Sequence record: OR670491
Reading direction: 5' to 3' (one strand)
DNA: 64,000 nt
DNA from: Escherichia phage vB_EcoM_JNE01
Both the position numbers and the translations under genes were made by a program. Positions 49,067 to 53,022 of the stretch are shown piece by piece. Each line of letters starts with the position of its first letter. Within the stretch, counting starts at the first letter, position 1. The notes below the pieces were generated by a model, which saw only the letters and a list, made by a program, of their open reading frames with translations, was not told the DNA's origin and made no database searches.

Positions 49067-49312
49067 ATGAACAATTCAACAGATCACTACCAAGAACTTA
49101 GTCAAAGTACTAAGAACTATATGAGCTACATGAACGCAGAAGATTTCGCAGTCTTCCTCGGAAAATTCTGTGCAATCAATACCCTCAAAAAAAGTACCAG
49201 TACTACAAGTGTACTTATGTTGAATTGCTTTATAGAGAACATCCTTGAGGAACTTCAAAGCCCTGACGAAAGTAAACGATTCATGAACCTTTTGTTACTG
49301 GCCTCTATATGA
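49067..49312 (+). CDS. small-ORF array member 1 (diverged)
   Basis: 81 aa, AAGGAG RBS; C-terminus ...NLLLLASI. Confidence 0.45.
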   Translation: MNNSTDHYQELSQSTKNYMSYMNAEDFAVFLGKFCAINTLKKSTSTTSVLMLNCFIENILEELQSPDESKRFMNLLLLASI

Positions 49313-49518
49313 CTCAAGAACAAATTATGCAGTACTACCTATGTGCTATATCAAAAGAACATCTGAATAGCATAGGGCATCAACAAATTATACTTGCAAA
49401 TGCGAAACGTTCGGCACTTCTGCTTAACTCCATCAGAAATAACCTCATAAGGAATTTTCTGGAAGGTAACGAATCTATGCAGTACTATTTCATCTTAACA
49501 CTACTAATCGAGTACTAA
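49309..49518 (+). CDS. small-ORF array member 2
   Basis: 69 aa; N-terminal ...QYY, C-terminal ...YYFILTLLIEY. Confidence 0.45.
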   Translation: MTQEQIMQYYLCAISKEHLNSIGHQQIILANAKRSALLLNSIRNNLIRNFLEGNESMQYYFILTLLIEY

Positions 49519-49722
49519 ATGAATAAAGAACAATTATTTCAGTACTATAAAAGTACTCTGTCCAAAGGTCTACAGGAAAGTATAGCAGTTGAGTCTGCAA
49601 TACTACAGAACCTTAATGCAGTAGAATTCACAAACAGAATCACCAGGCACGCACAAAATGCTTTACAAGGACATGAAACCTTGAGATACTATCACATCAT
49701 CGTGCTTTGTATGGAGGTATAA
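49519..49722 (+). CDS. small-ORF array member 3
   Basis: 67 aa; ...FQYYKSTLSK ... YYHIIVLCMEV. Confidence 0.45.
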   Translation: MNKEQLFQYYKSTLSKGLQESIAVESAILQNLNAVEFTNRITRHAQNALQGHETLRYYHIIVLCMEV

Positions 49723-49730
49723 CAGAACAA

Positions 49731-49922
49731 ATGAATCCAGAACATCTAGAGTACTACAAGACATTCATGAACCACAAGGATCAGTACAGTTACAATACTG
49801 CTATGGGGCATTTTCGATACCATACCAAAAAAATGCAAAAGCACACACTAACACTATGGACTGTACAAGCACAACGAGACGAACTAAGATTGTGTGCTAT
49901 AATTAAAATCCTGAACATCTAA
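49731..49922 (+). CDS. small-ORF array member 4
   Basis: Internal ATG of track ORF 49707; MNPEHLEYYKT... Confidence 0.4.
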   Translation: MNPEHLEYYKTFMNHKDQYSYNTAMGHFRYHTKKMQKHTLTLWTVQAQRDELRLCAIIKILNI

Positions 49923-49930
49923 GGAATACT

Positions 49931-50122
49931 ATGTACGAGCACAAAGAACAGTACTTAAACACTCTACCTAAAGATATACAAAGAGCATTCCCTTGTGCTC
50001 CGTGGGATTTAAACAGTAAATGGGGTTTTATTGAGTTCTATAACGATGTATGTATTGTACTGGAAAGTAAGTCCCTCTCAATGCAGTACTGTTCAATCTT
50101 GAACCTAATTTTTAAGTACTAA
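49931..50122 (+). CDS. small-ORF array member 5
   Basis: MYEHKEQYLNTLP ... LNLIFKY. Confidence 0.45.
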   Translation: MYEHKEQYLNTLPKDIQRAFPCAPWDLNSKWGFIEFYNDVCIVLESKSLSMQYCSILNLIFKY

Positions 50123-50126
50123 AACT

Positions 50127-50306
50127 ATGCAAACATTCTATACAGATAGACTAAGCCTTAGAGATACTTTTATGTACGAAACCTTTGTTAAGTACTATAA
50201 CTTAGGTACTCCAATTACAAAGAATATTAATCTACAGCACTGCACACACTCAGCAGTACATGACCACGATCCGTACAGATACATCTTAGCCCTTTTAAGT
50301 ATATAA
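50127..50306 (+). CDS. small-ORF array member 6
   Basis: 59 aa (not in track): MQTFYTDRLS ... YRYILALLSI. Confidence 0.35.
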   Translation: MQTFYTDRLSLRDTFMYETFVKYYNLGTPITKNINLQHCTHSAVHDHDPYRYILALLSI

Positions 50307-50315
50307 GGAACACTA

Positions 50316-50990
50316 ATGAAACTCAATAATTACAGTAAACAATACCTAAAGCATTTTAAGTACCTCAAAAGCATTAAGGCTGAATCTATCACCAGCAGCT
50401 ACGTTTACAGCCCTAATGTACTAAAACAATTAAAGTACAAGAAAGAAAAAGTATCAAAGAACCTCAAAAAGTTTCTTAAGCACAAAGACGCAAAGATTCA
50501 GTACTTGAACATTAAAAACGATCATCCAGTACTAAGCCTCAATACAAGTCTAAAGAATCTGGATAACTCTTCATTTATGCTTGAGTTCAATATAAATGAA
50601 AATACTCCAGCGGTTTTTACAATTGCGTATAATAAAGCACAAATCTTTTTAGGTGCAAAAACCGCACTTAAACTCAGTAAAGCACAATTCTGTTTAGGTG
50701 ACCAGTACTACGTAGGTAGTGTACATATTGAACTCGAAAAAGATATGTACTTCGGTAGTACCCACGATAATCCAGAACATAAAGATACTATTGACTTCTT
50801 CAGGAATCTCCCTAAAGAGTATTCAGAAGATGAAATGTTCCAGTGGAGTACTATTATTAAAGACCCACATCTTTGCTACGAAGTGTATAAGAAAGTACAA
50901 GGGATTAAACAAATGATTAAAGAAAATAAAAAAATGTACCAACTCTTGCAGTTCTTAACCGGAGAAAATCTAATTGTTCAAAGACCATAA
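50316..50990 (+). CDS. hypothetical protein inserted in the small-ORF array
   Basis: 224-aa ORF with repeated KxxYLK-like segments. Confidence 0.45.
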   Translation: MKLNNYSKQYLKHFKYLKSIKAESITSSYVYSPNVLKQLKYKKEKVSKNLKKFLKHKDAKIQYLNIKNDHPVLSLNTSLKNLDNSSFMLEFNINENTPAVFTIAYNKAQIFLGAKTALKLSKAQFCLGDQYYVGSVHIELEKDMYFGSTHDNPEHKDTIDFFRNLPKEYSEDEMFQWSTIIKDPHLCYEVYKKVQGIKQMIKENKKMYQLLQFLTGENLIVQRP

Positions 50991-51168
50991 AGAGTACTAC
51001 AGAAATCAACTCCCAAAGGAATGGCAAATAACATTAGAAACTAACCTAGCACAGATATATACCCAGAAGTTTCTTGCTATGACATGGGAGCACTGCATTG
51101 AGTCAGTACTGAATTCTTCAAATGAATCACAATATCTCAATACTCTTTTACTTGTATATAAATTCTAA
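50974..51168 (+). CDS. small-ORF array member 7
   Basis: (M)FKDHKEYYRNQLP ... LLLVYKF; apparent TTG start overlapping the upstream gene. Confidence 0.35.
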   Translation: MFKDHKEYYRNQLPKEWQITLETNLAQIYTQKFLAMTWEHCIESVLNSSNESQYLNTLLLVYKF

Positions 51169-51181
51169 AAAGGAATAACAA

Positions 51182-51388
51182 ATGCAATTCCATGAACATA
51201 TGGAGTACTACAGAAAACAACTACCAGAACCTTTATCGATGATAATCGGTTCCAGAAGTTTAATAAGTAATCCCAATTTTCATATGCGTAGTCACTATAA
51301 ATGTACTGCTTCAATTTGTAATGGAACTGCTCACAATGAACCGCACCAGCATCTATACCAAATCCTTAAACTAATATATCAGTACTAA
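51182..51388 (+). CDS. small-ORF array member 8
   Basis: MQFHEHMEYYRKQLP ... LKLIYQY. Confidence 0.45.
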   Translation: MQFHEHMEYYRKQLPEPLSMIIGSRSLISNPNFHMRSHYKCTASICNGTAHNEPHQHLYQILKLIYQY

Positions 51389-51391
51389 ATT

Positions 51392-51583: not shown

Positions 51584-51586
51584 ATC

Positions 51587-51766
51587 ATGCACAACGATTT
51601 CTATATACAAAAACTTATCGACGCTGGCCTGGAAAGCTTCCCGATAAATCCTGTACAAACAAAAGGATTGCACTGGTACTTCATCCCCTGTACTAAAGCA
51701 TGTATAAACCCCAGCAATTACAAGGATCTATACCACAATATATTAATACTCGCATTGAGGTACTAA
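51587..51766 (+). CDS. small-ORF array member 10
   Basis: 59 aa (not in track): MHNDFYIQKL ... ILILALRY. Confidence 0.35.
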   Translation: MHNDFYIQKLIDAGLESFPINPVQTKGLHWYFIPCTKACINPSNYKDLYHNILILALRY

Positions 51767-51769
51767 ATT

Positions 51770-51952
51770 ATGCAAGAACACTTGGAGTACTACAGAAGCC
51801 ATCTCCCAAAGAAGGCACAAAGAAACTTCGACCAACAATATATAAACCAAAAGAATCAGTTCTATAATGCATTCTATTCGTCTATGAAAACTATTGCTAT
51901 ACAAGGCAAAGACCCGTACTATAGCATCCTGAACATCATCTTCAAGTACTAA
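51770..51952 (+). CDS. small-ORF array member 11
   Basis: MQEHLEYYRSHLP ... LNIIFKY. Confidence 0.45.
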   Translation: MQEHLEYYRSHLPKKAQRNFDQQYINQKNQFYNAFYSSMKTIAIQGKDPYYSILNIIFKY

Positions 51953-51955
51953 AGC

Positions 51956-52141
51956 ATGTACAGAGACTTCTATATAAGTAAACTTAATCCTGTACTACAA
52001 ACTCGTATTCCTCCAGCGAAATTTATCCTCAAAACAAAAGCACAAAGGTATGAGTTCAAAAAGTGTACAAAAGAAATACTCAGTACTAAAAGTAATAAGA
52101 ACATATACTATCAAGTACTCGTCCTTATATTCAAGTACTAA
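51956..52141 (+). CDS. small-ORF array member 12
   Basis: MYRDFYISKLNP ... VLVLIFKY. Confidence 0.45.
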   Translation: MYRDFYISKLNPVLQTRIPPAKFILKTKAQRYEFKKCTKEILSTKSNKNIYYQVLVLIFKY

Positions 52142-52161
52142 AGTACTAAAGGAATAAACAT

Positions 52162-52356
52162 ATGCAACACCAGCACAAATTGTACTACACGCAATTTCTT
52201 AATCAGCAACTACAACAATTTATACCTAATGAACCATTACCATATGATCATCCCCTGGGTGCACGCGTTTTCAAAAGAACTATTAATGAACTATTGAGTA
52301 CTACCGACGACGATTCCCTGTACTACTGCTTAATTAAACTTATATATAGGCACTAA
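52162..52356 (+). CDS. small-ORF array member 13
   Basis: MQHQHKLYYTQFL ... LIKLIYRH. Confidence 0.45.
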   Translation: MQHQHKLYYTQFLNQQLQQFIPNEPLPYDHPLGARVFKRTINELLSTTDDDSLYYCLIKLIYRH

Positions 52357-52357
52357 T

Positions 52358-52552
52358 ATGCAACTCCTGCACAGAGAATACTACACACAATTCCTTAAAG
52401 AGAACTACAGAGATTCAGTCCCCGTAACTCCTTTTGACCCAAATAACCCAAGTTCAATCTTCCTCTTTAACGACGCAACACGTACTGCACTCTGTACTAC
52501 CAATAAACATTGGCACTACGCATTTGTACTTATACTTATATACAGACACTAA
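52358..52552 (+). CDS. small-ORF array member 14
   Basis: MQLLHREYYTQFL ... LILIYRH. Confidence 0.45.
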   Translation: MQLLHREYYTQFLKENYRDSVPVTPFDPNNPSSIFLFNDATRTALCTTNKHWHYAFVLILIYRH

Positions 52553-52561
52553 GGCACTAAC

Positions 52562-52747
52562 ATGAATGAGCACAGAGAGTACTACATAAAGAGACTTCAC
52601 CCCGACCTACGAGATACTATACCATTCGTTCCACATAATATACATGAACCCGTAGTGCAGTACTACTTTAATATAACAGTACAAGCCGCATTAAGTGAAT
52701 ATAGACTTGAGTACTTCACTGTACTAAAACTTATATATAAGTACTAA
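52562..52747 (+). CDS. small-ORF array member 15
   Basis: MNEHREYYIKRLHP ... LKLIYKY. Confidence 0.45.
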   Translation: MNEHREYYIKRLHPDLRDTIPFVPHNIHEPVVQYYFNITVQAALSEYRLEYFTVLKLIYKY

Positions 52748-52812
52748 CCCCTTGACATATACTCCAAGAATGATATACTACTTTCTATATAGAAACAATA
52801 CAGAGATAACAT

Positions 52813-53022
52813 ATGCACGAACATAAAGATTTCTATGTAAGCCAACTCCCCGTAATAGACCAATTCTGGTTAGCTGATGCAGCACCGTGTAATACAGATA
52901 CTAAGTACGGACAATTGTGCTTTGTTGAATCTATAAAGAAAGTACTACAACAAGATAAAACTAAGTACCGTAAAGAAAAAGACTTGTACTTTAATATAGT
53001 AGAACTTACCTTTATGTTCTAG
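52813..53022 (+). CDS. small-ORF array member 16
   Basis: MHEHKDFYVSQLP ... VELTFMF. Confidence 0.45.
   Translation: MHEHKDFYVSQLPVIDQFWLADAAPCNTDTKYGQLCFVESIKKVLQQDKTKYRKEKDLYFNIVELTFMF

Follow-up and report, generated by a model that had tools for sequence, protein, structure and literature searches.

The 64,000-nucleotide (nt) stretch of Escherichia phage vB_EcoM_JNE01 analysed here (sequence record OR670491; the window) contains an array of small open reading frames (ORFs) at 49067–53022. The best explanation, to which we attach a reasonable though far from overwhelming probability, is that the array is an operon, probably early, of about 15 paralogous orphan proteins of 59–69 residues, each with a predicted four-helix fold, whose gene cassettes are reshuffled by recombination at their conserved coding ends. 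The window derives from an Asteriusvirus (121Q/PBECO4-like) jumbo coliphage, a group with genomes of approximately 350 kb (e.g., 121Q, PBECO4, and phAPEC6), and is 96.5% identical across the array to Escherichia phage Turkey5. The layout of the locus was constant in all relatives examined: a minus-strand block of RCC1-like genes, the plus-strand array transcribed divergently from it with one gene of ~220 residues in its middle, and ~2 kb of repeat-rich non-coding DNA 3' of the array.

The ORF listing gives 17 successive plus-strand ORFs, uninterrupted, at 49067–53022, and 15 of these, at 49309–53022, are same-strand paralogs that fall into three subfamilies. A hidden Markov model (HMM) built from 11 members of the window array recovered those members at E < 1e-21 and, more weakly, the genes at 49519 (1e-5), 49309 (3e-3), and 49731 (0.04). 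Eleven window ORFs matched PHROG 11711, a family of unknown function, with E-values from 1.6e-4 to 1e-13; the matches were full-length, running from profile positions 1–2 to 61–62 of 62. The genes at 49309, 49519, 49731, and 50127 had no direct match to PHROG 11711 and were tied to the core by hhalign (probability 93–94%, E ~1e-7); for this, the divergent front members were first aligned with orthologs from relatives, and the match was nearly full-length. The family consensus, xxEHxEYYxxxLP...YxxxLxLIYxY, bears out the conserved N- and C-terminal motifs reported in a preliminary description of this stretch. That description had counted about 16 tandem small ORFs confined to 49067–53022. The array is real and holds 15 members, the 81-residue ORF at 49067 not being demonstrably one of them, and one more member lies outside that range, at 37459–37668.

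Following the plus strand, the operon begins with this 81-residue ORF (49067–49312; HMM E = 5.4), for which neither a PHROG match nor a cross-clade tblastn match was found. Two subfamily A members come next, at 49309–49518 and 49519–49722 (hhalign 93.2%, E 2.9e-7), and then a 63-residue subfamily B member at 49731–49922 (subgroup hhalign 93.9%, E 1.6e-7), a 63-residue core member at 49931–50122 (PHROG 11711 E 1.8e-7; HMM E 3e-27), and a 59-residue subfamily B member at 50127–50306, which aligns with its 121Q and A4 orthologs, is 58% identical to its PBECO4 ortholog, and was included in the subgroup hhalign. After the embedded 224-residue gene (50316–50990) stand eight core members spaced 1–20 nt apart, at 50974–51168 (with a TTG start), 51182–51388, 51392–51583, 51587–51766, 51770–51952, 51956–52141, 52162–52356, and 52358–52552, all matching PHROG 11711 and with HMM E-values of 1e-21 to 1e-26. 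The core members at 52562–52747 and 52813–53022 complete the array; the latter has 69 residues (PHROG 11711 E 1e-9) and ends FMF-TAG, not KY-TAA. Gene spacing, previously given as 0–10 nt or overlapping, is indeed close or overlapping, but the actual range is −17 to +20 nt, with a single 65-nt gap as the sole exception. The two ORFs of under 60 residues noted earlier as missing from the ORF track (50127–50306 and 51587–51766) both exist, belong to the family, and are intact in Turkey5. Many array members are also absent from GenBank annotations: three in Turkey5 (locus coordinates 7061–7240, 8326–8517, and 8521–8700) and approximately half or more in PBECO4, CMSTMSU, and phAPEC6, and proteomic searches using those records would therefore be unable to detect them.

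Comparison of array members with their Turkey5 orthologs by the Nei-Gojobori method gave a ratio of nonsynonymous to synonymous substitution rates (dN/dS, or omega) of 0.27 in frame, compared to 0.87 and 1.64 in the two shifted frames. An in-frame value so far below the off-frame values strongly indicates that the ORFs are coding genes under purifying selection. All members were intact across the 12 genomes compared, and dN/dS was 0.22 for the first ORF (49067–49312). By segment, dN/dS was 0.15 for the first 13 codons, 0.39 for the middle, and 0.21 for the last 12 codons; the same gradient was observed among 121Q-clade orthologs, in which the ratio of the proportions of nonsynonymous (pN) and synonymous (pS) differences was 0.51–0.59 in the middle and 0.06–0.35 at the ends. 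The diversifying cores of the preliminary description are not demonstrated by these values, since omega in the middle (0.39–0.59) exceeds that of the ends and yet stays below 1. Neither is the middle unrelated between members, as had been stated: conserved positions and a predicted helix are kept, and in pooled paralog pairs pN was 0.49 in the middle compared to 0.30 and 0.36 in the N- and C-terminal segments. In the same pairs, pS was 0.63 in the N-terminal segment and 0.73 in both the middle and the C-terminal segment. Because synonymous sites at the termini are thus near saturation between paralogs, the termini appear to be conserved as protein and not by general DNA homogenisation; a general homogenisation of cassette boundaries, as proposed earlier, is at odds with terminal pS nearly as saturated as that of the middle. 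Codons of conserved residues vary synonymously among paralogs, and Tandem Repeats Finder reported no DNA-level repeat in the array. Codons ending in C make up 41–52% of array-gene middles compared to 23–38% in other long ORFs, and a preference for TAC over TAT, considered as evidence of conversion, was set aside as largely part of this general shift to C-ending, host-optimal codons (termini versus middle, p = 0.06).

AlphaFold2, run with the paralogs as the alignment, predicted a small helical domain (predicted local distance difference test score, pLDDT, 81.3) with helices at residues 2–9, 14–17, 30–45, and 49–61. In this model, the conserved N-terminal motif forms helix 1 and the hydrophobic conserved C-terminus forms helix 4; the middle comprises a loop and helix 3, with several semi-conserved positions in the alignment. 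The isoelectric points of members span 4.9–10.0, and no signal peptide was predicted for the array proteins. Profile searches of Pfam, NCBIfam, and PDB sequences returned nothing significant for the family. When 1.84 billion representative proteins were searched exhaustively with the profile, 24 matched, and a word-indexed protein search gave 12; all but one were proteins of ~60 residues resembling Asteriusvirus array members. The only long match, P0021 (1057 residues), is a repetitive adhesin and was rejected as spurious. No fold or sequence relative outside the genus was found in these searches, and the family appears to be an orphan confined to Asteriusvirus jumbo phages.

Reshuffling of cassettes can be seen directly between relatives. 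The Turkey5 array has one cassette more than the window, and the window gene at 52562–52747 is a hybrid formed from two neighbouring genes of Turkey5, X (locus 9496–9684) and Y (9688–9873): its upstream DNA and first two codons (ATGAAT) are those of X, and its body is that of Y. The switch lies within a 32-nt stretch that is the same in X and Y (52568–52599, plus strand; GAGCACAGAGAGTACTACATAAAGA.ACTTCA) and encodes EHREYYIKKL, and exactly 192 bp, i.e., one cassette, was lost from the window. In SHEFM2K, the gene at 5357–5539 consists of the start of 121Q gp257 fused in frame to the body of gp258, and a 12-nt tandem duplication is present at 5729; in Salmonella phage SD-15_S21, the gene at 4782–4967 is an in-frame fusion of gp257 to gp259. 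These four independent events (deletion, fusions, and duplication), one of them in the window, all have their junctions in the N-terminal motif. The longest exact DNA matches between paralogs, of 14–32 nt, fell without exception at the 5' start or at the 3' end. Judging by the mapped junctions, the N-terminal motif is a recurrent crossover point for in-frame cassette loss, fusion, and duplication, and the recombination at cassette boundaries put forward in the preliminary description is upheld in this form. Moreover, the gene at 51392–51583 differs from its Turkey5 ortholog at 36 nt (dS 0.31, dN 0.20) compared to 0–8 nt for its neighbours, which suggests a local allelic replacement of a single cassette.

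We compared cassette number and order in related genomes, as had been recommended in the preliminary description. The array holds 14–22 members in each of the 12 genomes, which form 46 orthogroups in total at a threshold of at least 60% identity. In the 121Q clade, member order was collinear, with whole cassettes present or absent. None of the orthogroups of the window and Turkey5 occurred in the remaining ten genomes. Across clades, window members reached at best 30–39% identity (eleven members) or 53–59% (four), the 224-residue gene was 40% identical to its counterpart across clades (121Q gp256), and the first ORF had no cross-clade match. The adjacent RCC1-like gene and the first downstream gene were 96% and 93% identical across clades, respectively. 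The array promoter and Shine-Dalgarno (SD) sequence were kept in 11 genomes drawn from both clades, which indicates that the divergent island starts at the first start codon. The whole operon appears to behave as a swappable module, present in two deeply diverged versions between near-identical flanks.

The embedded 224-residue gene (PHROG 29152, of unknown function; E 3e-41) was present in every array and had a dN/dS of 0.14 versus Turkey5. It scored E 1.7 against the family HMM and may carry a family domain at its C-terminus; AlphaFold2 modelled it with a pLDDT of 39, and a homolog search gave one near-identical cluster only. On the far side of the RCC1-like block, the outlying 69-residue family member (37459–37668, plus strand; HMM E 1.3e-6) starts 1 nt after a 217-residue ORF at 36804 (PHROG 34359), and this pair (36804–37668) mirrors the in-array pair of the 224-residue gene and the member at 50974. 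The two large proteins were marginally similar (BLASTP E 0.056). Their termini resemble the family motifs and both may be members with a large insertion; the alignment of the 224-residue gene's termini with these motifs is suggestive only.

The array is preceded by a near-consensus sigma70-type promoter (49015–49043, plus strand; TTGACA-17-TACAAT, 11 of 12 consensus positions), followed by the strong SD sequence TAAGGAG. The one long gap of the array, the 65 nt that separate the last member from its predecessor, holds a second sigma70-type promoter (52752–52779, plus strand; TTGACA-16-TATACT with TG). Downstream of the array is a hairpin with a T-run that resembles a terminator (53341–53370, plus strand). 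In all genomes, the genes were 0–20 nt apart or overlapping, and such spacing suggests one operon with translational coupling. The T4-type late promoter (TATAAATA) was absent from 48.9–53.1 kb; its three sites in the window are all at 21–22 kb. In phAPEC6, none of the array genes gp540c–gp548c occurs among the 62 virion proteins of the mass spectrometry table, in which the RCC1-like neighbours gp549 and gp551 are present; several members are unannotated in that record and so could not be identified, and a 4.7-kDa protein was detected. For CBB, a related phage, short-ORF regions behind RpoD-like promoters are considered to be early host-takeover regions (PMC5259590); the array is not mentioned in the passages searched of the Asteriusvirus papers on CBB, phAPEC6, Sharanji, and fEgEco12. 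The promoter, the missing late promoter, the shift to host-optimal codons, the absence of annotated array genes from the phAPEC6 virion table, and the parallel with CBB together favour early non-structural effectors. We infer that the genes are expressed early and are translationally coupled, and that their products act in host takeover or anti-defence, the variable middle setting target specificity.

The promoter itself differs between clades. A genome-wide palindrome, TTCAGTACTG, is present in the promoter spacer of 121Q-clade arrays; the window and Turkey5, which read TCTGGACTGA or CTTGGACTAA at this position, have lost the site. Should the palindrome act as an operator, the two clades would regulate the array differently.

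Under the explanation that we favour, the helix 1 and helix 4 motifs would be conserved by protein need, likely because they build the core of the fold or a docking surface common to all members. The stretch between them, a loop and helix 3, would be free to vary, giving each member a different surface and charge. The shared short coding motifs, recurring in the same frame with a ~190-bp period, would permit homologous recombination between neighbouring or distant cassettes. Such recombination would delete, duplicate, and fuse whole genes in frame, producing copy-number variation, chimeras, and occasional short conversion-like tracts, and the entire operon could be swapped as a module between its near-identical flanks.

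The preliminary description interpreted the array differently, as boundaries homogenised by recombination or gene conversion around diversifying cores. In a rival model built on it, the ends would be kept identical as DNA by gene conversion, the palindrome AGTACT would be a recombination signal, and the cores would be under positive selection. Several observations are in line with this. The Turkey5 X/Y pair had a pS of 0 in the N-terminal 13 codons compared to 0.51 in the middle, an identity that we regard as a conversion-like tract. The Glu codon before Tyr-Tyr was GAG in 6–7 window and Turkey5 members and GAA in 8–10 per 121Q-clade genome, so that one or the other is common within lineages; this split fits local concerted evolution or lineage-specific expansion, with one informative ortholog pair. 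AGTACT occurred 26 times in the window array compared to 6.8 ± 2.1 under synonymous permutation, and the window crossover tract includes it. The X/Y tract therefore speaks for gene conversion at the ends, but the near synonymous saturation of pooled paralog pairs speaks against it as a general process, and a middle omega of 0.4–0.6 against positive selection. Bracketing of each cassette by AGTACT proved not to be the rule: the hexamer was found in the N-terminal motif of 9 of the 15 window genes, at the stop of 6, and at both in only 5. In 121Q-clade arrays, in which turnover is equal, KEYY is written AAA-GAA-TAC-TAC, with the result that 0–1 genes are bracketed; most of their AGTACT sites fall within the middle and helix 4. 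None of the three junctions mapped in the 121Q clade contains AGTACT; all are in AAAGAATACTA. On balance, we regard this interpretation as improbable.

A cassette-specific role for AGTACT is also difficult to reconcile with its distribution. It is the commonest hexamer in the window, with 243 copies compared to 21.8 ± 4.2 in dinucleotide-preserving shuffles (11 times the expectation), and the longer word CAGTACTG has 53 copies compared to 1.1 expected. All three reading frames contain AGTACT, which is denser between genes and at 48–64 kb and is incorporated in early-promoter and terminator elements. Its preferred context genome-wide is T.CAGTACTG.A; in the array, A and not the G of the CAGTACTG class follows 78% of the sites, which arise from Tyr-Tyr and Tyr-stop codons. 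Every array has a 3.5–4.6-fold excess over the synonymous-permutation expectation, which indicates that a genome-wide word-creating pressure acts on the arrays as well, without regard to cassette borders. An excess of approximately seven-fold is also present in core-gene regions of Klebsiella phage RaK2 (JQ513383, 100–150 kb) and Cronobacter phage GAP32 (JN882285, 100–150 kb), and the word would thus be a conserved DNA-level signature of Rak2-like jumbo phages. In the literature searched, no paper linked AGTACT with jumbo phages.

Conservation of the C-terminus could in principle stem mainly from a translation-initiation or coupling signal of the next gene, A[A/G]G-TAC-TAA-nnn-ATG. Gaps of 1–3 nt at most junctions of every genome would suit such a signal, as would the TAA stop of 13 of 14 members (with TAC as the last codon in 8 of them) and the FMF-TAG ending of the last array gene, which has no downstream partner. 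However, members that precede the 20-nt or 65-nt gaps, where the next gene has its own SD sequence or promoter, still end KY-TAA, and AAGTAC and AGGTAC are poor SD matches. Furthermore, the conserved C-terminal block covers approximately 12 residues of predicted helix, with a pN of 0.36 compared to a pS of 0.73, and the constraint is therefore mostly on amino acids. A signal of this kind is, in our assessment, a decidedly unlikely main cause.

The excess of AGTACT is accompanied by the absence of another word. GCGC has 0 copies in the window compared to 43.7 ± 6.9 expected and 0 in every Asteriusvirus locus compared, and 50 kb each of RaK2 and GAP32 also have 0, compared to 32 and 52 expected. 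Among other possible causes, the word may be avoided because of a restriction enzyme or a nuclease that the phage encodes. A more ambitious proposal is that the (C)AGTACT(G) excess and the GCGC absence reflect a functional DNA signal (e.g., a Chi-like or nicking site, or a site for a genome-organising protein), and that synonymous codon choice in the window's lineage (GAG-TAC-T, AAG-TAC-TAA) placed this signal at cassette borders, raising in-frame exchange and making the array a programmed diversity-generating effector locus on a docking scaffold. We consider this very improbable. Nevertheless, the finding that three genera have AGTACT in excess and lack GCGC may be a more surprising lead than the array itself.

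Equally improbable, in our view, is that the array proteins are packaged in the virion in the manner of T-even internal proteins (IPs), their N-terminal motif directing them to the capsid or marking them for processing, and the rest of the sequence, which varies, being injected against host defences. T-even IPs are packaged and proteolytically processed, and their locus is reportedly polymorphic, encoding small proteins with a conserved capsid-targeting sequence. The array, itself a polymorphic locus in a phage distantly related to T4, resembles it in having a short N-terminal coding motif common to divergent small proteins, which can serve as a recombination handle. In contrast to the IPs, the annotated array genes are not found in the phAPEC6 virion, as two of their neighbours are, and the array lacks a T4-type late promoter. 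Neither does a consistent prohead-protease cleavage motif (L/I-x-E) follow the N-terminal motif: this reads xEHKEYYKxQLP, with an L-E pair in 2 members only (EHLEYY). The conserved C-terminus would also be left unexplained by a targeting signal.

We give next to no credence to the idea that the ORFs are non-coding tandem repeats, which the preliminary description had named as a challenge to its own account, or decaying pseudogenes that stay open: the family has no assigned function, its homologs are restricted to the genus, and several GenBank records annotate it incompletely, but the codon-level constraint (dN/dS 0.27 in frame), the members intact in all 12 genomes, the confident predicted fold, and the lack of a DNA-level repeat in the Tandem Repeats Finder output all speak against it.

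Our preferred explanation, an operon of paralogous cassettes recombining at their coding ends, has parallels in several known systems. In PeSL shuffling, described for hyperplastic regions of T4-type phages, repeats at the borders of small, non-essential, sigma70-transcribed ORFs mediate gene indels and replacement (Arbiol et al., 2010, PMC2839356; Comeau et al., 2014, PMC4122927). The array is similar in being a small-ORF cluster in which short border repeats provide homology and whole genes are exchanged between close relatives, with indel junctions in the repeated border element (four array junctions are in the N-terminal coding motif). However, PeSL repeats consist of a non-coding promoter and stem-loop flanking unrelated ORFs, whereas the handle in the array is coding and its genes are paralogous; exchanges in the array are in frame and yield chimeric proteins, with one main promoter and no stem-loops between genes. 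A search for PeSL-type units, i.e., a promoter and stem-loop per ORF, yielded two strong plus-strand promoters (49015 and 52752) and no intergenic plus-strand hairpin, and the −17 to +20 nt spacing is too tight to accommodate units of this kind.

Multigene families of large DNA viruses offer a second comparison. The MGF110, MGF360, and MGF505 multigene families (MGF) of African swine fever virus (ASFV) and the multigene families of poxviruses are implicated in host range and immune evasion, and poxviruses are said to expand and contract such genes as 'genomic accordions'. Shared with the array are tandem paralogs, copy number that changes by unequal crossover, and a lineage-specific repertoire, and the array, like those families, may lie near a terminal repeat; it differs in residing in a bacterial virus and in encoding much smaller proteins (~60 residues) with an orphan fold. 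In Neisseria pilE/pilS and Borrelia vlsE, a single expression site is changed by one-way conversion from donor cassettes that are truncated and lack promoters. These systems and the array have in common that cassette borders are conserved, cores vary, and recombination takes place at the borders, but each of the 15 array cassettes is a complete gene, with start and stop codons of its own, under purifying selection. Given its 14–22 members in 12 genomes, collinear cassette indels, and chimeras, we would file the array as a viral tandem multigene family evolving by unequal crossover, a known kind of locus, with an orphan protein family.

Jumbo phages carry hundreds of small orphan genes, and the array allows the evolutionary process to be read directly: gain, loss, and fusion of cassettes are caught between sequenced relatives, on a 60-residue scaffold with an in-frame recombination handle. 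If the proteins are host-takeover or anti-defence effectors, they would provide dozens of natural variants on one scaffold for mapping specificity, and the array would be a bacterial-virus counterpart of the poxvirus and ASFV multigene families.

The surroundings of the array include a second multigene family. On the minus strand, 37697–48965 holds nine tandem RCC1-like (beta-propeller) paralogs of ~360–450 residues (PHROG 4219), with hairpins such as GCCAGTACTTGAGTACTGGC between them; in phAPEC6, two of their homologs are virion proteins. Direct terminal repeats of ~21 kb characterise published genomes of the group (PMC11895373, PMC13070987), e.g., 20,993 bp in the 374,733-bp genome of fEgEco12 (PMC13070987). 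The array match in fEgEco12 lies at 350,643–352,832, ~1 kb before the inferred right terminal repeat (fEgEco12 coordinates only).

Immediately downstream of the array, 53023–55100 consists of ~2 kb without convincing ORFs that is nonetheless 88–93% conserved across Asteriusviruses. It contains a 66-bp tandem repeat (54884–55048; 2.5 copies, with ATTCAGTACTGAAT palindromes), ACGGCTAA repeats at 54159–54259, and several consensus sigma70 promoters on both strands; an Rfam scan of 48.8–56 kb gave zero matches. This region could contain the terminal-repeat boundary or regulatory RNAs. Beyond it, at 55075–63200, a repeated promoter class (consensus AAAGTACTTGCA, 16 nt, TATAAT, GTTTTACATC) occurs in at least 12 copies upstream of small ORFs, for example at 55075, 56213, 56774, 57576, 58220, 59005, 60296, 60827, 62339, 62568, and 63171, and in some copies CAGTACTG abuts the −10 element. 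The class resembles early promoters, and its region is probably within the terminal repeat. A megablast search with 53023–60000 found matches in 198 phage records, including Campylobacter phages, Phapecoctavirus, Justusliebigvirus, and Vequintavirinae; some element of this segment appears to be common to phages far outside Asteriusvirus.

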